From: a virus
Taxonomy: Duplodnaviria; Heunggongvirae; Uroviricota; Caudoviricetes
DNA: 64,000 nt
IMG/VR virus record: IMGVR_UViG_2693429668_000006
Direction: 5' to 3' (one strand)
Positions 4,053 to 63,190 of the stretch are shown one piece after another. Under the pieces are notes generated by a model. That model was not told the DNA's origin, ran no database searches, and was given only the letters and a program-made list of their open reading frames with translations. Each line of letters begins with the position of its first letter. Position 1 is the stretch's first letter. The translations under genes were made by a program, and so were the position numbers.

Positions 4053-4073
4053 GATAGGTAAGTATATACCTAT
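4053..4073 (-). promoter_or_regulatory. class-A palindromic motif GATAGGTAAGTATATACCTAT
   Basis: recurrent motif family (13 copies) just upstream of minus-strand genes. Confidence 0.45.
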
Positions 4074-4225
4074 TTTTGCATTTGATTTTATGTCTGGCAA
4101 TCAAATAAAACGCGCCAGAAATGCAAACGAGAAGCTCTCTGGCGCGTTTTTGTGGTGCTGGGTATGTGATTGGCTTACCCAGTACTATAAAGCTCTCTAT
4201 GGGCTTTATTTTAAGTAGGGGAACG

Positions 4226-18430: not shown

Positions 18431-19075
18431 TTACAGCGCGTCAGTGGGCTTTTTACGCGCTGCGTTTATGCTTATGACGCCAGCTTTTGGACGTGGGTCA
18501 ACAAGGTTAAGCTCTTCTTCGCTGTGGTATTCGAGGTCGAACTCACGTTTTACATGTCTGATGTAGATTGCGGTGAGCAGGCTATCTTTGGTCAGAAAGT
18601 GTCCGTAGGATTTGCGGATCACTTCTTCTACTTTCTCGATTTTCTCACCACCCATACAGAGATGATTAAACCGGCTGTGTTTCCGCAACATTTCGTCTAC
18701 TGGGCCTGAGTAAACCTTGTCTACTTTCCCAAAACGGATGATTTTCCCTGTGTCTGCGGATACGAGGCAAATCAGCTTGTCTGGTGATAAACGATCTCGC
18801 CACGTCACACCTGAACGGAGTGTGTTGAAGTAGGGAGCATCCAATCCGATGATCGGTTTACGAAATGCGAGTAATGGAACGTACCTGATGCAACTGTTTA
18901 AATGAAAATTCACACCAGCCTTATCAAGTTTAATTCTGGTTTCGTAGATCGGGCACTTCGCCGCTATACCGCAGATGTCACAAAGCAACTTCTGCTTATT
19001 CAGGTTGGAATTTGATTCGATAGTGTAGGAGCCGTCTTCAAGACGACGAACCCAGCGCGTGCGTTTTAGATCCAT
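18431..19075 (-). CDS. hypothetical protein (214 aa)
   Basis: ORF track. Confidence 0.45.
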   Translation of the reverse strand: MDLKRTRWVRRLEDGSYTIESNSNLNKQKLLCDICGIAAKCPIYETRIKLDKAGVNFHLNSCIRYVPLLAFRKPIIGLDAPYFNTLRSGVTWRDRLSPDKLICLVSADTGKIIRFGKVDKVYSGPVDEMLRKHSRFNHLCMGGEKIEKVEEVIRKSYGHFLTKDSLLTAIYIRHVKREFDLEYHSEEELNLVDPRPKAGVISINAARKKPTDAL

Positions 19076-19274
19076 ATGTCATTTTTCTGTGATTGTTAGC
19101 CGAGGCAACGATAACCCACCAGGTGCGCCGAAGGTAGTAAATGCCTGTTTTAATTATTCACATATCCACAGGATAGATCCTAATAAAGAGATCCATAGAT
19201 AGATCCTTATATAGATCAAATAAGATCCCCGATCGCTGTAAGCCGCGCCACGACTGGTCTGAAGTCATGTTCAT

Positions 19275-19376
19275 GTATGCTGTCAGCGGTAATTGATAGT
19301 CTGTCAGCGGTTCACCGTATGCTGCCAACTGTTTTTGGTATTCTGTCAGCGGCAAATCAAGTATGCTGTCAGCGGT
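19275..19376. repeat. upstream iteron array: 5 copies of ~16-bp GTATGCTGTCAGCGGT (some degenerate)
   Basis: copies at 19275, 19295, 19317, 19338, 19361. Confidence 0.75.
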
Positions 19377-19396
19377 TGAATGACAAAGGTGTCCAC

Positions 19397-20491
19397 ATGT
19401 CCACAAAAAATAAAAAAGGTAAAAATAACAAAGAAGTAGAAGATAACATCGACAACTTTGAAGAAGGTTCCCTTGAATTGTACACAGGGGAACTTGTCCC
19501 TAATAGCAACAATACAGTCCAACCAATTGCGTTGATGCGACTGGGGTTGTTCGTCCCCACGCTTAAGGGAACAAAATACAGTAAACGTAACAAGCCAAAT
19601 GAGATCGATGCTTCAAAGGAGCTTGTCCAGCTCGAAGTAGCCCGTTCTGAAGGCTATTCCGATATCAAGATAACCGGTCCTCGCCTGGACATGGATCATG
19701 ATTTCAAAACGTGGGTGGGCGTTGTGCGTTCGCTGGCAGAATACGGCGAACCTAATGGTCGTGTCGAGTTAAGCATCACGAAATTTGCGAAGTTTTGTGG
19801 CTATCCATCGTCACAGATCCGCAAAACACTCCGCGACCGGCTTACAAACAGTCTTTTGAAGATCATGCGTACAACTCTGTCTTTCCAGAGAACGTATGAA
19901 GAAAAGAACGTCGACGGCTCTAACAAGATCTCGCTTCTGATGGTGCACCTCATCAATAGCGTGGACTACAACGAGCAGAAAGATACGGTGGTGTTCTATG
20001 CAGAACCGAAGCTGGCCGAACTATATCGCTTTGACCATAAGGTTCTTTTGCAGTTAAAGGTTATCAATAAGCTACCACGCAAAGAAACAGCACAGGCTCT
20101 GTACACCTTCATCGAAAGTCTTCCAACCAAGCCTGCGCCGGTATCGCTTGCTCGATTGCGTGCGCGACTCAATTTGAGTAGCAGGAATGTCAGCTCGCAG
20201 AATCAGACTATACGTAACGGCTTAAAAGCTCTCCAAGATTTGGGCTATCTCGAATACAGCGAGATTAAGCGTGGGCGGTCGATCTATATCCAGATTCACA
20301 GCCGCAATCCAAAACTCAAAGTCGCACCGCCAAAACCTGAAGACATCGAACCCAAAAAACCAGATGAGAAAGCCGGGGAAATTGATGCCAAACAGAACAT
20401 TATCAATAAGATAACCGAACTTTCGCAGAATTTGACGCCTGAAAATATCAAGATGATTGAGATCCTTTCCAATAGTCTCAAACTGCTTTGA
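19397..20491 (+). CDS. repA: iteron-associated replication initiator (RepA-like), 364 aa
   Basis: plus-strand gene bracketed by iterons; ATG at 19397 with RBS; longer track ORF starting inside iterons rejected. Confidence 0.6.
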   Translation: MSTKNKKGKNNKEVEDNIDNFEEGSLELYTGELVPNSNNTVQPIALMRLGLFVPTLKGTKYSKRNKPNEIDASKELVQLEVARSEGYSDIKITGPRLDMDHDFKTWVGVVRSLAEYGEPNGRVELSITKFAKFCGYPSSQIRKTLRDRLTNSLLKIMRTTLSFQRTYEEKNVDGSNKISLLMVHLINSVDYNEQKDTVVFYAEPKLAELYRFDHKVLLQLKVINKLPRKETAQALYTFIESLPTKPAPVSLARLRARLNLSSRNVSSQNQTIRNGLKALQDLGYLEYSEIKRGRSIYIQIHSRNPKLKVAPPKPEDIEPKKPDEKAGEIDAKQNIINKITELSQNLTPENIKMIEILSNSLKLL

Positions 20492-20608
20492 TATGCTGTC
20501 AGCGGTGAAATGTATGCTATCAGCGGCTATTTTTCTGAAAAGTATGCTGTGAACGGTTAAAGATATGCTACCAGCGGTATAGTGAGATAAACGTATGCTG
20601 TGAGCGGT
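20491..20608. repeat. downstream iteron cluster 1 (5 copies)
   Basis: copies at 20491, 20512, 20542, 20563, 20593 with alternating 21/30-bp spacing; first overlaps rep stop codon. Confidence 0.75.
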
Positions 20609-20768
20609 AAATCATCTATCACCACTCAATGCTCTTTTATACCTCCCCAGTGGTTACTAACCTCGAAGAGTGCATTCCATATAGGTTTGCGCTCACTAAC
20701 ATTCTATTCCCATTGCGCTGATTACTTGTAGTGAAAGGTATTTATTGCCTGCTGCTCCCTGATAGAAC

Positions 20769-21023
20769 GTATGCTGTCAGCGGTGTTTTATTGAGGAATT
20801 TTTGTTTGGATATGCTATCAGCGGTAATTAATGGCATATGTCAGACCTTCGTATGCTGCCAGCGGTAATTTTGTTCTGGTTATACCCATACCGGTACACA
20901 TTATTCATGCAATGTCTTAAGTATGCTGTCAGCGGTAAAAAATCGAGTAAAGTATGCTGTGAGCGGTGAGATAGACTCTCGATATGCTATCAGCGGCAGT
21001 TGATTGTGTATGCTGTCAGCGGT
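20769..21023. repeat. downstream iteron cluster 2 (7 copies)
   Basis: copies at 20769, 20810, 20851, 20921, 20952, 20982, 21008. Confidence 0.75.
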
Positions 21024-21070
21024 GACGACTATGAAATATGACTGCGGAACGTGCCGCAGTCAGTTTGCAT

Positions 21071-21283
21071 TTAGTGTATTTTCTTCAACAGACCCCAAAG
21101 TGTTCCGGCTTTTGTAGTCAGTTTTCCTGTTTCTGGATCGTACATACGCCATTCACGCCGCTGGTGGACGATATACCCATCTTCACGTTCCAGACGCTCA
21201 AGAATGCCAGGCTGCTTGAAACCCTTAGCACGCCAGTATCCGCTTGTTTTCTCGATTTCCAGACCTGCCAGTGTTAATGCCAT
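21071..21283 (-). CDS. hypothetical protein (70 aa)
   Basis: ORF track; ATGA-type overlap with upstream gene. Confidence 0.35.
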   Translation of the reverse strand: MALTLAGLEIEKTSGYWRAKGFKQPGILERLEREDGYIVHQRREWRMYDPETGKLTTKAGTLWGLLKKIH

Positions 21284-21618
21284 TATCCAACCTCCTTGCA
21301 GTCATCGAAAAGGTAGCTTTGCTGAGAAGCGTGAACGCCATAGAAGCCCTTGTATTTGTTGTATACGAAGTGGTCTTCTCCGACGCCGGTTAATTTGCCA
21401 TTACGATTTGTGAGATATGGGGATGACAACACTCGATCGTCACGCACAACATAGAACTGGTCGCCGCTGTCTACGACCATCGCTCCATATGGTGCTTTTA
21501 TGACGTCGGTAAGAGCGCCATTCTTAACGTCGGCTACAGACATTTCACACTGATAAACAGTGGTGTCGGCCACAACGATCGAAGAAAGGAACAACAGCGC
21601 GAATGGGATGGCCTTCAT
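21283..21618 (-). CDS. secreted hypothetical protein (signal peptide)
   Basis: N-terminal MKAIPFALLFLSSIVVA signal-like sequence. Confidence 0.45.
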   Translation of the reverse strand: MKAIPFALLFLSSIVVADTTVYQCEMSVADVKNGALTDVIKAPYGAMVVDSGDQFYVVRDDRVLSSPYLTNRNGKLTGVGEDHFVYNKYKGFYGVHASQQSYLFDDCKEVG

Positions 21619-23807: not shown

Positions 23808-26147
23808 TTACTCTTCTACTGACTCGGTGGGGTTGTCTTTTGCTCTTCGGTCGTCGATTGCCTGCAAAGCCGCAATGATTTCAGCCAGTGGCTTCTCCCG
23901 ATACATCTCGACGATCTGCGATTTGGTGTATTTCTTGTCACCAATTTCAACTCGCCCGCTGGCGTTCTTTGGCAGGTATCCTTCTTCCAGCATGTACTCG
24001 ACGAGCGATTCGATAACGTCGAGGCCACGAGTAGGATCGAAGTAGAATTTCCAGGTGCATTTGCCATACGGTGGTGCAACTTTGTTTTTGATGCATTCTG
24101 CGCCTACGTCCTGGCCGATCTTCTCTTTACCATCCTTCATCACCGATGCACCAAGACGGATACGTACAGAAGCGTAGAACTTCGGTGAATCTCCACCTGG
24201 CGACGTAGTAGGGTCGCCAAACATTACACCGATTTTTGTGCGAACCTGATTCAAGAAGATGATGCAGGCGTTGTATTTGCGTGCCCACAAAGCCAGAGTA
24301 GGGAAGTTCGCACTCGTCGCACGAGCCAGTGCCGTATTGTCGTTCATGTTTAGCTGATCTTTGTCTTTGGCTGTGCCTTCAGCCATCTTTTCGAACTTCT
24401 CGGCTTTGGAGTTCGGAACCATAGACGCAAGAGAGTCAGCCACGATACAGATAGGTGCTGATTCGGGGATAAGCTCTTCATCACGAACCAATTTAAGTAT
24501 TGTGCCGATCAACTCTACAGAGTCTTCGAAGGTATCTGGCTGCTTGTATACCCACTGACCGTCATCCTCATCTGCGTTCAGGCCATTGGCTACAGCCAGG
24601 CCAACGTCAAAACTGTTTTCATGATCGAGGAATACCGCCAGACCATCTTGTTTTTGAGCGGAGATCATCGCTGCTGTTGCAAGGAATGTGTTGTGGCTGA
24701 TAATCCCGTTAGACCAGAAAGAGTGTGTTTCCGGCATCGCTACGTCGAACGTTGGTGCTTCACCTTCCTCAATAGCCACGACTTCGTCGTAGAACAAGTT
24801 AGAGCCAATTACCGCTGCCAGTTGTGCAAACAGATGCTCGTTAAAACGATTCTTTCTGCCAATGAAGGAGACATAGATTTCTCGCAGTTTGTCTATTCCG
24901 ACACGATCGCCGCGGCCAATAACGTGGTCTACCAGAGCGTAGTCTTCACGGGTGGTCTTGGTGAGCGACTCGTAGAGTGATTTCACTAAGCCGCTGATGT
25001 GCGGAACATAGCCTGAGTAAGTGCGGTCAAAACCAATGTCCCGTTTGGTTGCCACTGATAAACGTGCCGGAGATTCGAAACCAATCGTTGACAGAAAAAG
25101 GTCGTAATTAGAGCCACTGAATGACAGCCGGTAATATGTATTTTCATAACCCGCGACGTGTTTTTCAGAGATAGTTGACGTAATCCCCAGATTCAGGAGC
25201 ATGAGGCGAATTTGCTGTAGCAGCAGCCCACTCGCGCTCACAACCTCAATGCAGCGACCATCATTGACGTGGCATTCCAGCTCAAAGTAGCCGCGAAGGA
25301 ATGCAATTTGAGCCTCGCTATTGGCGCGACGCACACTCAACGGAACCTGCTTGCCAGCAGCTTTCTCATACTCCAGACCATATTCTTTAAAAAGCAGCGA
25401 ACGCACCTCTTTGCTAAACAGCACATGGTCTTCCGAGCCGTTATGTTTTCTCGTAACTGGCATCTTGTCTGATACCAGCGAAATGAGGCGGTAGTACTCA
25501 TCCTTGATGAAAGGATCTGTGTTAGAAAAATTCACTGAATTTTCAGAGGCCACGTATCCGTCAGCAATTAAATAGCCCATCAGTTTTGCGATATTGGCAT
25601 CCAGGTGCTGATCGCCGAATTGATGTGTGCCAACCATTGAAGGAATCGTGTCGCCTACACTGATTTTTTCAGCATGTCGCCAGACGACATTACCTAAGTC
25701 GTCAACCACACGGATTGGGTGACGGAACGTAGCCTCGATATAACCGCCTGATGCCAGCTTAATACGCTTGAATTTGCGACGGTTGTTCCATGTCAGGTGT
25801 GAGGTCTTCTCTATCACGCCATTTTCATTGATGAGTCCAACGTTATGCTCTACATCGCGAGTAGTGCATGTCGCTTTGTACCCTTCAATCTCAAACAACT
25901 CTTTCACTGTTACCATTCCACGCTCCGTCAGCAGCATGGTGTCTGCGGTAACACATTTCCCCGCGCTTGGTGGCCCGAATACTTCTACGATACGACCACA
26001 TGGGAAACCGCCATCGTAACGACCGGAAATAGCTTTGTTTAACGGAGGAAAGCCTGTGTCAATCCAATGAGTTACTTTCTGAATTTCGTCGTTGCTACCG
26101 ATTTTCTTTTTCAGAGCAAGTGCCAGTGCGGATTTTCCTTTTGCCAT
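23808..26147 (-). CDS. recA: RecA-like recombinase precursor interrupted by an intein
   Basis: exteins (64 + 293 aa) carry RecA motifs GRIVEVFGPPSAGK|TF, FLDHENSFD, IIFLNQVR; insertion inside Walker A. Confidence 0.8.
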   Translation of the reverse strand: MAKGKSALALALKKKIGSNDEIQKVTHWIDTGFPPLNKAISGRYDGGFPCGRIVEVFGPPSAGKCVTADTMLLTERGMVTVKELFEIEGYKATCTTRDVEHNVGLINENGVIEKTSHLTWNNRRKFKRIKLASGGYIEATFRHPIRVVDDLGNVVWRHAEKISVGDTIPSMVGTHQFGDQHLDANIAKLMGYLIADGYVASENSVNFSNTDPFIKDEYYRLISLVSDKMPVTRKHNGSEDHVLFSKEVRSLLFKEYGLEYEKAAGKQVPLSVRRANSEAQIAFLRGYFELECHVNDGRCIEVVSASGLLLQQIRLMLLNLGITSTISEKHVAGYENTYYRLSFSGSNYDLFLSTIGFESPARLSVATKRDIGFDRTYSGYVPHISGLVKSLYESLTKTTREDYALVDHVIGRGDRVGIDKLREIYVSFIGRKNRFNEHLFAQLAAVIGSNLFYDEVVAIEEGEAPTFDVAMPETHSFWSNGIISHNTFLATAAMISAQKQDGLAVFLDHENSFDVGLAVANGLNADEDDGQWVYKQPDTFEDSVELIGTILKLVRDEELIPESAPICIVADSLASMVPNSKAEKFEKMAEGTAKDKDQLNMNDNTALARATSANFPTLALWARKYNACIIFLNQVRTKIGVMFGDPTTSPGGDSPKFYASVRIRLGASVMKDGKEKIGQDVGAECIKNKVAPPYGKCTWKFYFDPTRGLDVIESLVEYMLEEGYLPKNASGRVEIGDKKYTKSQIVEMYREKPLAEIIAALQAIDDRRAKDNPTESVEE
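24690..25955 (-). mobile_element. intein (422 aa) with LAGLIDADG homing-endonuclease domain
   Basis: starts Cys (CVTADTML...), ends ...SHN followed by Thr; LAGLIDADG-type motifs LMGYLIADGYV and AFLRGYFELE. Confidence 0.8.
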
Positions 26148-55365: not shown

Positions 55366-55725
55366 TCACCCTTTCTTCATCAACTCGCGTTTAATTTCAT
55401 CGGTACGCATCGTGACATCGGCAGCTGTGATCGCCTCGTTAAGTTTCACGATGTCCTCGATTTCCTGCGGTGTCTTCTCCGCAAGATGGAAAATAGCAGC
55501 ACGAATCACGTCAGAACGAGTGAACTTCTCGAAGCGAGGGATGAACTTCATCATCTCCAGCAGTTCGAAGTATTCGTCCTCCAGTGACATTGTGCGGCTT
55601 TTAATTTTCTCTTTGCCACGAGTCGGGCGTCCCTGTGGTCTGACTGGTTGGCGCAAAGGAGTTGTGTTCTTAGCCGGTGCATCAGGCTCTTTGCGCTTTG
55701 CTAGGTCACCCATTTTCATGGACAT
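55366..55725 (-). CDS. small partition partner protein (ParG/ParB-like candidate, 119 aa)
   Basis: translationally coupled downstream of parA; basic N-terminus. Confidence 0.4.
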   Translation of the reverse strand: MSMKMGDLAKRKEPDAPAKNTTPLRQPVRPQGRPTRGKEKIKSRTMSLEDEYFELLEMMKFIPRFEKFTRSDVIRAAIFHLAEKTPQEIEDIVKLNEAITAADVTMRTDEIKRELMKKG

Positions 55726-56393
55726 TATTCTTCTTCCTCCAGACTCAACAGATAATCTACAAATTCTTCAAACTCGGCTTCCGCCTTTTTGTCGCGCTCG
55801 CTACCGGTCATTTCAAAGATAGAACGACCAGACTCTTCCGCATCATCATAGACGTTGCGGTTATATAGATTGACTGGCGCAGACTCGATGCCAAACGTCT
55901 CAACAATCTCTTTAGCCGCCAGAATGCGAGACACTTGTGATGGCAAAGCCGGGCACTGGTTCATGACCGCGCGGACCTTCACTTTATCGTTTACATTACG
56001 AACATTGTCGATAATAGGATCGATGTCACGCAGAGATTTCAAATCACGACGCTTAGGACGAAGCGGGATAATGATAACGTCGGCCATCAGCATCGCTTGT
56101 CGCTGAATTTCGGAGTCAAAGCCACCAGCATCTACCACTACAAACTCAGCTCTACCCTGAAGCGATTTTAGGTGCTTAATGATGTCATCCTGAACGTATG
56201 CAAAAGGAATCAGCTCAAGGTCTTCGTTCTGTCGACGGTCTTCACACCAGCTTGTTGTCGTGCGCTGAATATCTATATCAGTGATATAAACCTTCTTCTT
56301 CTTTTTGACTTTCAGGCAAACGGCAATTTGCTGGGCAACGGTGGATTTGCCAGGCCCGCCCTTTGTGCCGCCAACCACAAAGATCTTGGTCAT
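55725..56393 (-). CDS. parA: ParA-family partition ATPase
   Basis: deviant Walker A VVGGTKGGPGKST; 222 aa small-ParA size. Confidence 0.8.
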   Translation of the reverse strand: MTKIFVVGGTKGGPGKSTVAQQIAVCLKVKKKKKVYITDIDIQRTTTSWCEDRRQNEDLELIPFAYVQDDIIKHLKSLQGRAEFVVVDAGGFDSEIQRQAMLMADVIIIPLRPKRRDLKSLRDIDPIIDNVRNVNDKVKVRAVMNQCPALPSQVSRILAAKEIVETFGIESAPVNLYNRNVYDDAEESGRSIFEMTGSERDKKAEAEFEEFVDYLLSLEEEE

Positions 56394-59164: not shown

Positions 59165-62100
59165 TCAGTTACTTGTTGCCCCAACAGTACCTGCAAATTT
59201 CAGCCATTGACCTGACGGACTTCTATTACTACGGTAGTGATAAACGAGGATTGCGTTTGTAATCCCACCATAGTCAGCTTTGTGTGACGTCGTTAAACGA
59301 ATTGTATAATCACCGTTAGGTAGATTAAAAACTTCGATTATAGATTCTGCTAATTCTACAGCACCAAATCCCGTTATATTGTTGATACTGCCAGCATTGA
59401 ATCCCATAGCATCGCCAAAGCCAATCCAATAACTTTTGCTAAACGCCCCATTTGATTTTAGGTGGCTAATGAATGCGGACAAGCTCATGCCCATATCCCC
59501 ACCTGAAACAGAGGAAGTTCGCACAGTCATACTTGGAAGAGCACTGCTCTTCACATAGGAACTTAGAAGGTTTGTTACCTCTGTTTTCGTGTAAGCATTA
59601 AGGTTAGCCGCAGTCAAAGTTATATCGGCAGAGCCATCAAACGCCACACCAGCAATTTTCCTTGCTGTCTGCAATTTTGTGGCGGTTGCGGCATTACCAG
59701 TAGTGTTCTGGTTCCCATCTGCATTCACACCTGGAATGCTGTCTTTTTTAGTATATATCTGAGTCCAGTCCTCTTCGAACCCATAGCCATCACGTGATGA
59801 ACGGTAATACAATCCACCATTTTTATAATGCGCTCGGATTTGGAGAGTCCGACAACTACCTACGCCTATATAAAAATTTGCAACGATATAAGAATCCCCG
59901 GAGCGTGTAACATTATACGCACCTGATTCGGCATTCCACGGGACCGCACCACTAGCATCGGCATAAGTTCCAGTAGCGCGTCGAGCAAAAGCAGATACAT
60001 TTGCAGCTGTTAGTGTTATATCAGCAGAACCATCAAAAGACACGCCGCTTATTTTTCTAGCAGTTTGCAACTTCGTAGCTGTTGAAGCATTACCGTTCAA
60101 ACTACCATTTACGCCACCAGTAACATTTAGTCCATTACCAATGGACACAGCACCGCTGGTATTATTAATTGTAATAGGTCGCAAACCGTTCCATGAACCT
60201 AATGTGTCTCCTGATGCTGTTAGCATGAAATATGTGTTCGATCCATCATTACGGATAAAGAACCCAAAGCTACCGTAAGCAATGCGGAAACCATTTGCAT
60301 ATTTTGAAACGATCTCACCAGAAGACGTTAATCCGCCAGTTAACGCTCCTCCAGATAGTGGTAAAGCTCCGACATCAGCCGCAGTAGGCTTGTTTTTAGT
60401 GTTATACGCTCTGCGCCATCCTGGTGAATAGCTCGTCCCGTTAAATACATAGATAAACTCCGCATTAGTGAGAGCACCAGAGACACTCGCCGTTGTGGCC
60501 GTTGTTATACGGATCGTATAATTGTTTGAGCTACTACCGTTATTAAATACCTCTATAACAGCTCCTGCTAATGGAATAACGCCACAACCAGTTTCACTAT
60601 TTGGTATGGTTGCACTATTGGCATAGGCCCACGCACATCGAGCAATCCATGACTTTGTGTTAAATGCTCCATTATTTTGCAATAACGTCACTAACTGTGC
60701 TGTTGTTATTGCTCCGCCATTACTTCCTGTAGTTAACCAACCAGTAGGAGATGCCGGGCAACCTATATTTGCTGGCGACAAGGAAATATTTGCCGAGCCG
60801 TCAAACGACACCCCATTGATAGTACGCGCAGTCTGCAACTTCGTAGCAGTAGCCGCGTTGCCCGTTGTATTCTGATTACCAGTCGTATTAACACCTGGCA
60901 AATTAATATTCGCAGTACCATCAAAGCTCACGCCGCCGATAGTTCTTGCCGTCTGAAGTTTTGTAGCAGTTGCAGCATTACCAGTGGTGTTCTGATTACC
61001 CGTAGTGTTTACACCTGGAAGGTTAATATTTGCAGAACCGTCGAAAACAACTCCACCGATAGATCTTGCCGTCTGCAATTTCGTGGCTGTACTTGCATTA
61101 CCATTCAATGAACCAGTTAATCCACCTGTAACAGACAACGGACCTGAAACTGTTCCTCCGGTTGTTGGCAGTGCTCCAATATCTGATGGTGTAGGTTTCT
61201 GATGTGAGCTATACATCGTATAAACAACACCATCGGTAACGCTGGAAGGCTTACTCGCTGAATATGTTGGCGAGGTATAAATAGAAACTGTCGCATTTGC
61301 AGTACAATCCCAATGGATATTTACACGAGTCGCATAATTGCCAATCTCAACGTAAATATCATATGTATCGCCGGATGTGTTGATCCAGGCGAAATTCGTT
61401 AATCCGACAGCTGTACGCTTCCACAAAGCACCTGTAATCCCTTTGGGGTTTCCATTGCCTGCTCGTAGAACCAGTTCTGAAATGCCTGCCTGATGTGGGG
61501 AGCCGACGTTGTAACCAGCGCCACCAATCAATGCGATGTAAACGATGGAACTCGCTTGTGGCATGGTAACCGTAGCCAGTTTGAACCACCCTGCCCCGCC
61601 AGAGAAAGACATCGTTACTGAATTTAAAGTACCAATATCTTTCGGCGTTAATGTGATATCCGCAGTCAGTGCTTTACCGTTAACTTTTCGGTTAGATGGC
61701 ACCCTGCTATTCGCATTGTCATTGGCTGCTTTAACTGCTTTTGGCGTTGCGGCCAGCGATTCACTGGTGCTGTCGACAGCACTGCTAAGTTTCACAACAC
61801 CTTTAGTTGTAAGGCTTGCGTCTTCCATCGCAACTGCACCGGCAATCTCTTCAGCACGATCAGCAGCAGCTTCCGCACGGGTCGCAGCGGATTCAGCAGC
61901 AGTTTTGCTCTGAGATGCTGCCGTCGCACTGCCTGCCGCCTCTGTTGCTTTCGTGGATGCCGTCGTGGCACTGCCCTTCGCTGCTGACGCCTGTCTGGTC
62001 GCCTCATCTTTTGAAGCAGACGCAGATGATGCCGATGACGCCGCCGAACTGGCGGACGATGCGGCAGCCGTTTTTGAGGATTCTGCGCTGGTTTCCGACG

Positions 62101-63190
62101 CTTTCGCGTTCGTTTCGGATGTCTTCGCTGCGGAAGCAGACCTCGCTGCTGCGCTAGCCTGTTCAGTGGCTTCGCCAGCCTTCGTTGTGGCTGTTGAAGC
62201 AGACGATGCGGCACTTTCTGCCGATTTTCCGGCGGCGGTGGCACTGGCTGAGGCCTGCCCGGCACTTGTTGACGCGGCACTGGCAGACGACGCAGCCGCT
62301 GTTTTTGAGCCTGCCGCAGCTGAGGCACTCTGTGCTGCTGCCGTCTCAGAAGACTTAGCGTTCGTCTCGGACGTTTTTGCCGCCTTCGCGGAATTGCCTG
62401 CCGCTGTTGCCGAGGAGGCTGCACTACTGGCGCTCAAGGATGCGTTCGTTTCTGATGATTTCGCTGCCTCTTTTGAGGCCGCCGCATCCCGGGCTGAGGT
62501 GGCAGCTTCTGACGCTTTCGTGGTCGCGGTGGATGCAGAAGTGGCTGCTGATTGTTGTGACGCTGCGGCATTCGTTTCAGATTTTTTCGCAGCAGTTGCA
62601 CTCGCACTTGCGGCACTTTGTGAGGATGCCGCAGCGGATGCACTTTGAGACGCTTGAGAGGCTTTTTCTCCAGCGGTATTGGCGCTTTCTGCTGCTGCGG
62701 CAGCACTGGCCGCTGCCTCACGAGCTTTGTCGCCAGCAGCATCAATCGCGTCAGTGTTATTTTTATACCACTCAACGTTTTCGTTGTGCTCGTTGACGAT
62801 CTGCATTAGCGGCTTAACGGTTACTTCTGTACCGTCTTCACGCTCGATTGTCACCTCATCCAGAGCAGTCAACCAACTGCGCATAGACTTGGAATCAGCC
62901 GACATACGCGACATTAGTGCTGTAAAGCGCGCGCTAAACTGTGTTAAGTCGCCTTCATAGGTCGTAATGATTCGGCACGGAACCTCAGACTGAGTTTCGC
63001 CGGTATAAGGTTCTGAGAGAACAATATTCGTATCGCTTATTACGCGCTTGATCTCATACAGCTTATTGTCGGGGCCAATGACGATCATCCCCGGCAACAC
63101 ACCATTAGCTGTTACGTTCCAGGCTGTCCCTGCCCCAACCAGAGTATTGCTACCCTGTGTAAATGTGATAGTACCTTCCCTGTACCACAT
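59165..63190 (-). CDS. tail fiber protein (1341 aa) with Ala/Ser-rich coiled region and T4 gp34/gp37-type fiber repeats
   Basis: ~200-aa Ala/Ser/Thr/Lys low-complexity segment; repeated GNASTATKLQTAR.I.GV.FDGSA.I.L units (>=5). Confidence 0.8.
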   Translation of the reverse strand: MWYREGTITFTQGSNTLVGAGTAWNVTANGVLPGMIVIGPDNKLYEIKRVISDTNIVLSEPYTGETQSEVPCRIITTYEGDLTQFSARFTALMSRMSADSKSMRSWLTALDEVTIEREDGTEVTVKPLMQIVNEHNENVEWYKNNTDAIDAAGDKAREAAASAAAAAESANTAGEKASQASQSASAAASSQSAASASATAAKKSETNAAASQQSAATSASTATTKASEAATSARDAAASKEAAKSSETNASLSASSAASSATAAGNSAKAAKTSETNAKSSETAAAQSASAAAGSKTAAASSASAASTSAGQASASATAAGKSAESAASSASTATTKAGEATEQASAAARSASAAKTSETNAKASETSAESSKTAAASSASSAASSASSASASKDEATRQASAAKGSATTASTKATEAAGSATAASQSKTAAESAATRAEAAADRAEEIAGAVAMEDASLTTKGVVKLSSAVDSTSESLAATPKAVKAANDNANSRVPSNRKVNGKALTADITLTPKDIGTLNSVTMSFSGGAGWFKLATVTMPQASSIVYIALIGGAGYNVGSPHQAGISELVLRAGNGNPKGITGALWKRTAVGLTNFAWINTSGDTYDIYVEIGNYATRVNIHWDCTANATVSIYTSPTYSASKPSSVTDGVVYTMYSSHQKPTPSDIGALPTTGGTVSGPLSVTGGLTGSLNGNASTATKLQTARSIGGVVFDGSANINLPGVNTTGNQNTTGNAATATKLQTARTIGGVSFDGTANINLPGVNTTGNQNTTGNAATATKLQTARTINGVSFDGSANISLSPANIGCPASPTGWLTTGSNGGAITTAQLVTLLQNNGAFNTKSWIARCAWAYANSATIPNSETGCGVIPLAGAVIEVFNNGSSSNNYTIRITTATTASVSGALTNAEFIYVFNGTSYSPGWRRAYNTKNKPTAADVGALPLSGGALTGGLTSSGEIVSKYANGFRIAYGSFGFFIRNDGSNTYFMLTASGDTLGSWNGLRPITINNTSGAVSIGNGLNVTGGVNGSLNGNASTATKLQTARKISGVSFDGSADITLTAANVSAFARRATGTYADASGAVPWNAESGAYNVTRSGDSYIVANFYIGVGSCRTLQIRAHYKNGGLYYRSSRDGYGFEEDWTQIYTKKDSIPGVNADGNQNTTGNAATATKLQTARKIAGVAFDGSADITLTAANLNAYTKTEVTNLLSSYVKSSALPSMTVRTSSVSGGDMGMSLSAFISHLKSNGAFSKSYWIGFGDAMGFNAGSINNITGFGAVELAESIIEVFNLPNGDYTIRLTTSHKADYGGITNAILVYHYRSNRSPSGQWLKFAGTVGATSN

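Follow-up and report, generated by a model that had tools for sequence, protein, structure and literature searches.

Replication of phage P1 from its R replicon (oriR-incC-repA-incA, IncY) depends on DnaK/DnaJ/GrpE and is controlled by SeqA/Dam and by handcuffing, and lytic replication of the same phage uses another origin and protein, oriL/RepL. The layout used here is that of the curated GenBank annotation of P1, which has a tandem DnaA site, five sites for Dam, five iterons in incC (spacing 21, 21, 21, 22), the promoter PrepA within these iterons, repA and the incA array. In RepFIB of F and P307 (IncFIB) repeats lie on either side of rep, with a GATC-containing core upstream, like in the locus described here, and the RepA replicon of Salmonella phage SSU5, pHCM2 and pLF82 (Cyrano) has the same iterons-repA-iterons architecture. 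According to a review, iterons located 3' of rep modulate copy number via titration and handcuffing (PMC12361487).

The stretch of DNA analysed here (64,000 nucleotides of IMG/VR record IMGVR_UViG_2693429668_000006, hereafter the window) belongs to an SSU5-supercommunity phage-plasmid of the pECOH89/p09EL50 type. We consider it very probable that positions 19154-21062 constitute the plasmid-state theta replicon of this phage-plasmid, homologous to but diverged from the P1 R replicon and RepFIB. The replicon is an ordinary one that has already been catalogued, and it offers no new mechanism. Its features, by window position, are:

19154-19170, plus strand: tandem DnaA boxes TTATTCACA and ATATCCACA with one base in common, aligned with the P1 oriR tandem DnaA site
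19175-19234, plus strand: six GATC (Dam) sites in (T)AGATCC heptamer repeats, aligned with the five P1 oriR Dam sites
19242-19252, plus strand: GC-rich element GCCGCGCCACG, identical in P1 oriR and Klebsiella relatives
19275-19376, plus strand: five direct, incC-like origin iterons, starting at 19275, 19296, 19317, 19338 and 19361
19335-19364, plus strand: candidate rep promoter TTGGTA-N18-AAGTAT in iterons 3-5, positional homolog of P1 PrepA, weak consensus match
19390-19405, plus strand: two adjacent TGTCCACA motifs astride the rep ATG, weakly DnaA-box-like (7/9 to TTATCCACA)
19397-20491, plus strand: rep, 364 aa, initiator of the RepFIB/P1-RepA clade by homology and Pfam
20491-20608, plus strand: downstream iteron cluster I, five direct iterons, spacing 21, 30, 21, 30
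20609-20768, no strand: iteron-free spacer of 160 bp between the downstream clusters, no PWM match above 6 bits and no Rfam match
20769-21023, plus strand: downstream iteron cluster II, seven direct iterons, spacing 41, 41, 70, 31, 30, 26
21039-21062, no strand: hairpin with a perfect stem of 9 bp at the module's right edge, adjoining the 3' end of a leftward gene (21071-21283)

The plus-strand ORF of 364 aa that had been predicted between the two iteron blocks was found where expected, preceded by a Shine-Dalgarno-like AAGG at 19386-19389, and its proposed kinship with RepA/RepFIB initiators was borne out by BLASTP, tblastn and Pfam alike. The closest characterised initiator is that of F RepFIB (52% identity, E = 2e-110, BLASTP), P1/P7 RepA is a homolog as well (43.5% identity, E = 2e-64, tblastn, aa 32-309), and residues 118-239 match Pfam PF01051 Rep3_N (WH1) with 37.5 bits (E = 3.9e-9, cutoff 22.4). 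An alignment of six initiator proteins including Rep has 76 invariant columns; judged by these sequence comparisons, the ORF is a true initiator homolog. Rep is longer than P1 RepA by ca. 30 N-terminal and ca. 55 C-terminal residues, and the similarity to RepFIB extends into part of the C-terminal extension. No match for Rep was present in NCBIfam, a phmmer search with Rep retrieved no PDB chain at E <= 1, a six-sequence Rep profile matched nothing in PDB apart from a spurious aldo/keto reductase, comparison of the Rep profile with F RepE by hhalign gave a probability of 2.7% (from a very shallow alignment), and an AlphaFold2 model computed from the single sequence was unusable (pLDDT 40).

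RefSeq uses an alternative reading from the ATG at 19277 (404 aa), a start that looks to be 40 codons too early. We rejected it, as this start falls within iteron 1, 5' of the position equivalent to PrepA, homology to P1 starts only at residue 32 of the 364-aa form, and the inter-iteron spacers that would thus be coding are 50% conserved versus an overall Rep protein identity of 85%. The TGTCCACA motifs at the preferred start have no other copies in the whole window, and Klebsiella relatives carry GTATCCACA (8/9) at this site.

Around rep, GTATGCTGTCAGCGGT occurs in 17 copies, five upstream and 12 downstream, all on the plus strand and all at exactly the coordinates of the original prediction. 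Allowing up to three mismatches, the 64 kb contain 18 matches versus 0.43 expected by chance, a number reached in none of 100 shuffled sequences; the eighteenth (position 25934, three mismatches, within a RecA/intein gene) is probably a chance match. With a PWM built from the 17 iterons every copy scores at least 19 bits and the rest of the window at most 15.1 bits. Within the 16-bp repeat, conservation is highest in the columns TGCTG and CGG. The same matrix found no degenerate relics in the 160-bp and 54-bp gaps of the downstream array, and a relic iteron suspected by eye near 20881 was rejected for want of a PWM score. The upstream block has start-to-start spacings of 21, 21, 21 and 23, and the last iteron of cluster I and the first of cluster II are 176 apart, start to start. 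The alternating 21/30 spacing ascribed to the downstream iterons is thus correct for cluster I and wrong for cluster II, and the reported overlap with the rep stop amounts to 1 nt, the first downstream iteron starting at the last base of the TGA (20491).

Upstream of the iterons, TTATTCACA conforms exactly to TTWTNCACA (there are just five such exact DnaA boxes in the window) and ATATCCACA has one mismatch. The adjacent GATC cluster is the densest in the 64 kb, with six sites in ca. 60 bp versus 0.41 per 100 bp overall, and the stretch 19150-19199 is 70% A+T; together they are a candidate for the unwinding and SeqA/Dam-controlled region. A consensus sigma-70 scan recovered no plus-strand promoter upstream of rep, and the promoter assigned to 19335-19364 is a putative one, proposed by position. 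Rfam matched nothing over 18900-21400, so nothing points to control by an antisense RNA there. The hairpin on the right is probably both a terminator and the module boundary.

The incC/incA architecture of P1 that had been invoked for this locus could be matched element by element with the curated P1 annotation. The initiators are homologous and the host-factor core of P1 oriR is 69% identical to that of the window at the nucleotide level, including the DnaA boxes, the (T)AGATCC heptamers and GCCGCGCCACG. The offsets are -121 in the window and -117 in P1 for the DnaA boxes, -99 to -44 and -94 to -43 for the GATC sites, and +101 and +103 for the end of the iteron block, and the candidate promoter of the window sits where P1 has PrepA (TTGCTA-N18-TAGGAT). 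In both, five upstream iterons lie ca. 21 bp apart, the first downstream iteron (iteron 9, in incA of P1) starts at the last base of the initiator's stop codon, and the downstream spacings (ca. 21, 30-31 and 41 bp) come close to whole numbers of helical turns. The resemblance to P1 is one of homology and not just analogy. The differences are also clear: the iteron is GATGTGTGCTGGAGGGAAA in P1 and GTATGCTGTCAGCGGT in the window, and the iteron blocks are just 40% identical, so that the two replicons would be expected to differ in specificity and in incompatibility group. There are six GATC sites versus five in P1, and the 12 downstream iterons are all direct and in two clusters, whereas P1 has nine (three direct, six inverted). 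In P1, incA is followed by the parAB operon, which is missing after the window array (a ParA-like gene lies ca. 35 kb away), and the host phage is an SSU5-type siphophage instead of a P1-type myophage.

From the homology with these systems, we envisage that Rep monomers would bind the five helically phased origin iterons and host DnaA the tandem boxes, and that replication would start from this region. After initiation the hemimethylated GATC sites would presumably be sequestered, preventing immediate re-firing. Rep may also repress its own synthesis, since the promoter of rep seems to be located inside the origin iterons. Clusters I and II together would act as an incA-like copy-control array, where the 12 iterons titrate Rep and handcuff with the origin iterons, and such an action could account for a low copy number and for incompatibility.

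A different division of labor, which we regard as unlikely, is that the downstream array is oriV and that the upstream repeats are only an operator for rep autoregulation. In some Rep_3 plasmids the origin does lie downstream of rep, and cluster I, with five iterons, equals the upstream block in number. A downstream oriV was proposed in 2026 for the near-identical plasmid pEc_K1G_A, where the four 3'-most repeats were named 'iteron-type oriV', eight of the 17 repeats were listed and the 404-aa start was used (PMC13463583). The eight listed repeats map exactly to window positions 20491, 20769-20866 and 20921-21023, but the five upstream ones are absent from that account, falling inside its 1215-bp repB annotation (window 19277-20491). 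Moreover, the DnaA boxes, the GATC cluster, the A+T-rich stretch and the GC-rich element are all upstream and aligned with P1 oriR, whereas the downstream array has a single DnaA-box-like site with one mismatch (20880-20888) and no A+T-rich region. The two arrays also behave differently among relatives. The number and spacing of the five-iteron block are the same in p09EL50, phage PhiR41_1 and two Klebsiella phage-plasmids, but the downstream iterons number 12, 9, 8 or 9; PhiR41_1 has nine instead of 12 copies, the last three having been lost by an 87-bp iteron-to-iteron deletion, and in the Klebsiella relatives the gap between the downstream clusters is shorter (87 bp start to start). Owing to the homology with P1, we place the likely origin upstream of rep and not in the downstream repeats.

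It is even less probable that the module is a relic or a lytic-only origin and that another function maintains the plasmid. The element does encode its own DnaE, DnaB-like helicase and RecA, and the annotation of p09EL50 includes a ligase; there must therefore be a separate replication mode of the phage type. However, the iterons are under purifying selection: in the Klebsiella phage-plasmid pJN2-26, 128 of 144 iteron columns (89%) are identical to the window versus 23 of 46 spacer columns (50%; Fisher p = 1.2e-7), against a background of 75% nucleotide identity in rep and 80% in the DnaA/GATC core of the Klebsiella relative. Iterons are thus not only present in related genomes, where their absence would have spoken against the original prediction, but also selectively conserved. 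Across more than 100 plasmids rep is an intact ORF with 97-100% conservation, MOB-suite detects a single replicon cluster in p09EL50 (rep_cluster_488), and the homologous replicons of P1 (RepA/oriR) and RepFIB serve plasmid maintenance. That the repeats are transcription-factor or recombination (att) sites unrelated to replication is scarcely credible, even though the GenBank record of phage pJN2-26 labels two homologous repeats attL and attR, as that record has 13 iteron copies, of which these 20-bp features are simply two, the repeats lie on both sides of a RepA homolog exactly as in P1, and the element was never found integrated in a chromosome (no chromosomal places in 5,426 complete E. 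coli genomes).

The reading of the locus as a plasmid-state replicon also agrees with its distribution. The replicon is 99.2% identical to that of p09EL50 and 99.6% to that of PhiR41_1 at the nucleotide level, and the downstream array was detected in 118 of the 5,426 E. coli genomes, with all 119 places on plasmids. PLSDB contains 144 matching plasmids, 137 of them non-mobilizable, and the best-matching records are ca. 105-125 kb long. The window encodes a tail fibre, a ParA-like ATPase, a tyrosine recombinase, DnaE, a DnaB-like helicase and RecA, and tail genes are present in p09EL50, i.e., phage structural and plasmid maintenance genes reside on the same extrachromosomal element. The suggestion that the element is a plasmid prophage is backed by its context: near-identical DNA in ca. 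110-kb circular plasmids and in a phage record, an exclusively plasmid location, and a mixture of phage and plasmid genes; its replication and low copy number are predicted from homology. The type assigned by PlasmidFinder to plasmids of the pECOH89/p09EL50 kind is IncFIB(H89-PhagePlasmid). The RepA proteins of pECOH89 and p09EL50 are identical, and members of the lineage bear CTX-M-15 (PMC3999498). Likewise, pEc_K1G_A was typed as IncFIB(H89-PhagePlasmid) and has iteron repeats at the same positions (PMC13463583).

The main value of these results is for annotation and epidemiology. The replicon marks a phage-plasmid lineage present in ca. 2% of complete E. coli genomes, and three annotations look wrong or incomplete, i.e., the RefSeq rep start, the attL/attR labels of pJN2-26 and the downstream oriV (PMC13463583). 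A full iteron map provides a concrete basis for predicting the incompatibility of co-resident SSU5-type phage-plasmids, and also aids the reading of copy-number mutants. A 2026 preprint reportedly connects mutations in repA and the copy number of phage-plasmids with antibiotic heteroresistance.

Although PlasmidFinder files this replicon type under IncFIB, true IncFIB incompatibility seems unlikely, since Rep is only 52% identical to the RepFIB initiator and the iterons differ (those of F RepFIB are unrelated ...ATAAGCTGT... repeats). RepFIB also resides on a conjugative plasmid and the window replicon on a phage genome. The SSU5 replicon occupies the same genomic slot, with flanking-gene proteins 85.5% and 94.3% identical, and has the DnaA/GATC core in common with the window, but its Rep is only 45-48% identical and its iterons, (A/T)ACCACTGTAGAGAG, are unrelated. 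Nucleotide homology with SSU5 breaks off at 19235 and resumes at 21073, just past the hairpin, and the specificity module therefore looks like an exchanged cassette. We tentatively extend this to a possible, still rather doubtful, generalization in which the iteron-rep-iteron unit (ca. 19236-21072) is an exchange cassette of SSU5-type elements and changes in the number of downstream iterons tune copy number. If so, the cassette would have its left junction between the first iteron and the conserved DnaA/Dam core and its right junction at the hairpin, and its exchange would let otherwise near-identical phage-plasmids escape incompatibility. The all-direct array would expand and contract (8-12 copies) via iteron-to-iteron recombination, as in PhiR41_1, and a copy number tuned in this way would in turn change the gene dosage of cargo (e.g., resistance genes) and how stably the lysogenic state persists. 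In SSU5 itself, the downstream array has inverted copies and the upstream core and iteron block are duplicated.

A search of the window with GTATGCTGTCAGCGGT, allowing up to three mismatches, returned 18 matches (0.43 expected), 17 of which are iterons, all on the plus strand and at exactly the places originally predicted, on both sides of an initiator gene (rep, 19397-20491, 364 aa) whose TGA stop shares its last base with the start of the first downstream iteron.

Iteron start positions from the GTATGCTGTCAGCGGT search
19275, 19296, 19317, 19338, 19361, plus strand: upstream iteron block
20491, 20512, 20542, 20563, 20593, plus strand: downstream cluster I
20769, 20810, 20851, 20921, 20952, 20982, 21008, plus strand: downstream cluster II

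The alternating 21/30-bp spacing first ascribed to the repeats holds in cluster I (21, 30, 21, 30, start to start) but not elsewhere, i.e., the upstream block is spaced 21, 21, 21, 23 and cluster II, which follows after a start-to-start gap of 176, is spaced 41, 41, 70, 31, 30, 26. In a PWM made from the 17 copies the informative core of the repeat is a 16-mer; all 17 iterons score at least 19 bits, the rest of the window never exceeds 15.1 bits, and the scan found no degenerate iteron relics in the gaps. The 18th match (25934), within the RecA/intein gene, departs from the query at three positions and is probably fortuitous.

Pfam and BLASTP searches identify Rep as an initiator, with Rep3_N at 37.5 bits (cutoff 22.4) and 52% identity to the F-plasmid RepFIB initiator (E = 2e-110); in PHROGs it falls in phrog_775 (E = 5e-133). 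Rep3_N is the WH1 domain of iteron initiators. By tblastn against phage records, Rep is 100% identical in two "Escherichia phage CMS-2020a" records, 99.7% in Escherichia phage PhiR41_1, about 85% in Klebsiella phage-plasmids, 48% to SSU5 and Cyrano RepA and 43.5% to P1 and P7 RepA (E = 2e-64); given the identities to P1 RepA and RepFIB, the P1 likeness pointed out in the original prediction is therefore real homology. Searches by sequence or profile gave no link to solved initiator structures and the single-sequence structure model was unusable, so it is the Pfam WH1 match that puts Rep, putatively, in the RepE/pi structural class. Compared with P1 RepA (286 aa), Rep is longer by about 30 N-terminal and about 55 C-terminal residues. 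The C-terminal extension (window 20326-20488, residues ~310-364) is absent from P1 and p0111 RepA, common to SSU5 RepA and partly to F RepFIB, and carries a conserved helical motif, L(S/T)(P/K)E..(I/L)..(I/L)E.L; it scored best within a structure model that was poor overall.

In its architecture the module follows the P1 R replicon and RepFIB and is not a new kind of system. AF234172, the curated P1 record, lists in order a tandem DnaA site, five Dam sites, five incC iterons, repA and nine incA iterons, with PrepA inside the incC iterons and the first incA iteron beginning at the final base of the repA stop. The window elements match those of P1 at nearly equal offsets.

Origin elements in the window and in P1 (offsets from the first iteron)
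Tandem DnaA boxes: window -121 (19154-19170); P1 -117
GATC sites in (T)AGATCC heptamers: window six, -99 to -44; P1 five, -94 to -43
GC-rich element: window GCCGCGCCACG; P1 identical
Number of origin iterons: window five; P1 five
End of the five-iteron block: window +101; P1 +103

The window's additional GATC site has its P1 counterpart in a heptamer reading CAGGTCC, and the origin-core GATC cluster is the densest of the whole window. Pairwise identity to P1 is 69% in the host-factor core (vs oriR) but only 40% in the iteron block, so the origin has kept its host-interaction part but diverged in its Rep-specific part. Where P1 has PrepA (TTGCTA-N18-TAGGAT), the window carries TTGGTA-N18-AAGTAT (19335-19364), a candidate that a consensus scan did not call as a promoter, so rep autoregulation is something we can only infer. 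Two adjacent TGTCCACA motifs, the only ones in the window, span the rep ATG, where Klebsiella relatives instead have a better DnaA box, GTATCCACA. The origin core alone (19143-19263) finds ~76-82% identity over roughly 80-120 bp in other Enterobacteriaceae plasmids, with no annotated feature beneath the matches; this DnaA/GATC core appears to be common well beyond the present lineage and unannotated in the records examined.

RefSeq/PGAP annotates a 404-aa Rep from an ATG at 19277, inside origin iteron 1 (window 19277-19396; 6178-7392 in L001, the p09EL50 record), so that the five origin iterons fall inside the CDS. The GenBank record of Klebsiella phage pJN2-26 has the same early start, likewise with the origin iterons inside the CDS, and that of PhiR41_1 uses the 364-aa start. 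Based on P1 RepA homology and promoter position, we favour the 364-aa start at 19397 over the 404-aa form.

The P1-specific details of replication control are established knowledge, and homology with P1 and RepFIB suggests a similar mechanism here. Rep monomers would fill the five phased origin iterons, DnaA would bind the tandem boxes and the neighbouring A+T-rich, Dam-methylated heptamer region would melt; once the fork has passed, hemimethylation would delay re-initiation (putative Dam/SeqA control), and chaperone dependence is likewise predicted. Rep on the promoter-overlapping iterons would restrict its own synthesis, and the twelve downstream iterons would titrate Rep and also handcuff the origin iterons, pairing with them in cis and in trans; both effects would lead to a presumably low copy number and set incompatibility (general statements on iteron control follow PMC12361487).

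Megablast of window 19100-21100 matched three phage records and 144 PLSDB plasmids (119 Escherichia; 137 non-mobilizable; 120 with at least 80% query coverage), the best-matching plasmid records being about 105-125 kb. A search with the downstream array alone placed it 119 times in complete E. coli genomes (118 of 5,426), always on plasmids and never on a chromosome. p09EL50, PhiR41_1 and two Klebsiella phage-plasmids all carry five origin iterons with the same spacing, while their downstream copies number 12, 9, and 8 and 9, respectively; a constant origin array beside a variable control array agrees with how labour is divided in P1. PhiR41_1 has lost three downstream copies through an 87-bp deletion from iteron to iteron (4060-4075 of its record, L002, vs window 20921-21023), as recombination between the two identical iterons at 20921 and 21008 could produce, and this makes the phage a natural variant in the size of the copy-control array. 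Against pJN2-26, with 75% nucleotide identity in rep, 128/144 iteron columns are identical compared with 23/46 in the inter-iteron spacers (Fisher p = 1.2e-7), a pattern that would be expected of selected protein-binding repeats.

The downstream array has itself been taken for the origin in pEc_K1G_A, a near-identical plasmid, where four downstream 21-bp repeats were called "iteron-type oriV" and four more were noted downstream (PMC13463583), at coordinates falling exactly on window 20491, 20769-20866 and 20921-21023. However, that description omits four cluster I copies and all five upstream copies, the latter falling within its 1215-bp repB annotation; moreover, the host-factor elements all lie upstream, aligned with the annotated P1 oriR, and it is the downstream array that varies naturally, and we consider a downstream oriV very unlikely. 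A relic, or an origin used only in lytic growth, is likewise a very unlikely reading of the module, given that the iterons are under purifying selection and that p09EL50 has a single replicon type (one MOB-suite replicon cluster, in a record with tail genes). The pJN2-26 record (MZ779062) labels two iterons as "phage attachment site", attR and attL (L005 1378-1397, 2648-2667), but these are mislabelled, being simply two of its 13 iterons, probably through a prophage-finder's direct-repeat heuristic.

The window comes from a phage-plasmid in the SSU5 supercommunity, a group typed as IncFIB in published surveys (PMC7969092; PMC11652158); the window further encodes a tyrosine recombinase, DnaE and a DnaB-like helicase, besides:

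55725-56393: ParA/MipZ-like ATPase
59165-63190: tail fibre

Compared with SSU5, identity is 85.5% and 94.3% for the flanking proteins, and the nucleotide sequences remain homologous across the DnaA/GATC core up to window 19235 and again from 21073, whereas Rep is only 45% identical in the comparison with SSU5 itself and the SSU5 iterons, (A/T)ACCACTGTAGAGAG, are unrelated. On these grounds the iteron-rep-iteron unit apparently behaves as an exchanged specificity cassette, with an analogue in the IncY/p0111 alternative replicases of P1-like elements (PMC7969092). The downstream array of SSU5 mixes direct and inverted copies, like P1 incA. SSU5 (L004 1780-2000, 2155-2411) also carries the origin core twice in tandem upstream of repA, the two DnaA-box/GATC cores being 80% identical over 44 nt and each followed by its own iteron block.

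Catalogues already have the replicon under a name, IncFIB(H89-PhagePlasmid) in PlasmidFinder and rep_cluster_488 in MOB-suite; a 2014 paper noted its RepA (PMC3999498) and the repeat array was partly described in 2026 (PMC13463583). Added here are the full 17-iteron map, a predicted origin upstream of rep, a proposed shorter Rep start (364 aa) and putative cassette limits relative to SSU5, of mostly practical use in annotation, prediction of incompatibility and the reading of copy-number variants. A 2026 heteroresistance preprint that names SSU5 and pHCM2 contains the phrases "mutations in repA" and "phage-plasmid copy number"; copy control through RepA in the SSU5-type family may already have experimental backing there.

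Divergent from the origin lies a gene for a 214-aa protein (18431-19075, minus strand; phrog_2105, no Pfam match) that adjoins the replicon also in SSU5 (85.5% identical) and the Klebsiella relatives, despite the different rep cassette. Further along, a 779-aa RecA-like protein (23808-26147, minus strand) contains an intein that includes a homing-endonuclease domain of the LAGLIDADG type (Pfam RecA, Intein_splicing and LAGLIDADG_3); its homolog is a 357-aa form without intein in p09EL50 and the 779-aa form in PhiR41_1, and the intein is therefore polymorphic in this phage-plasmid lineage.
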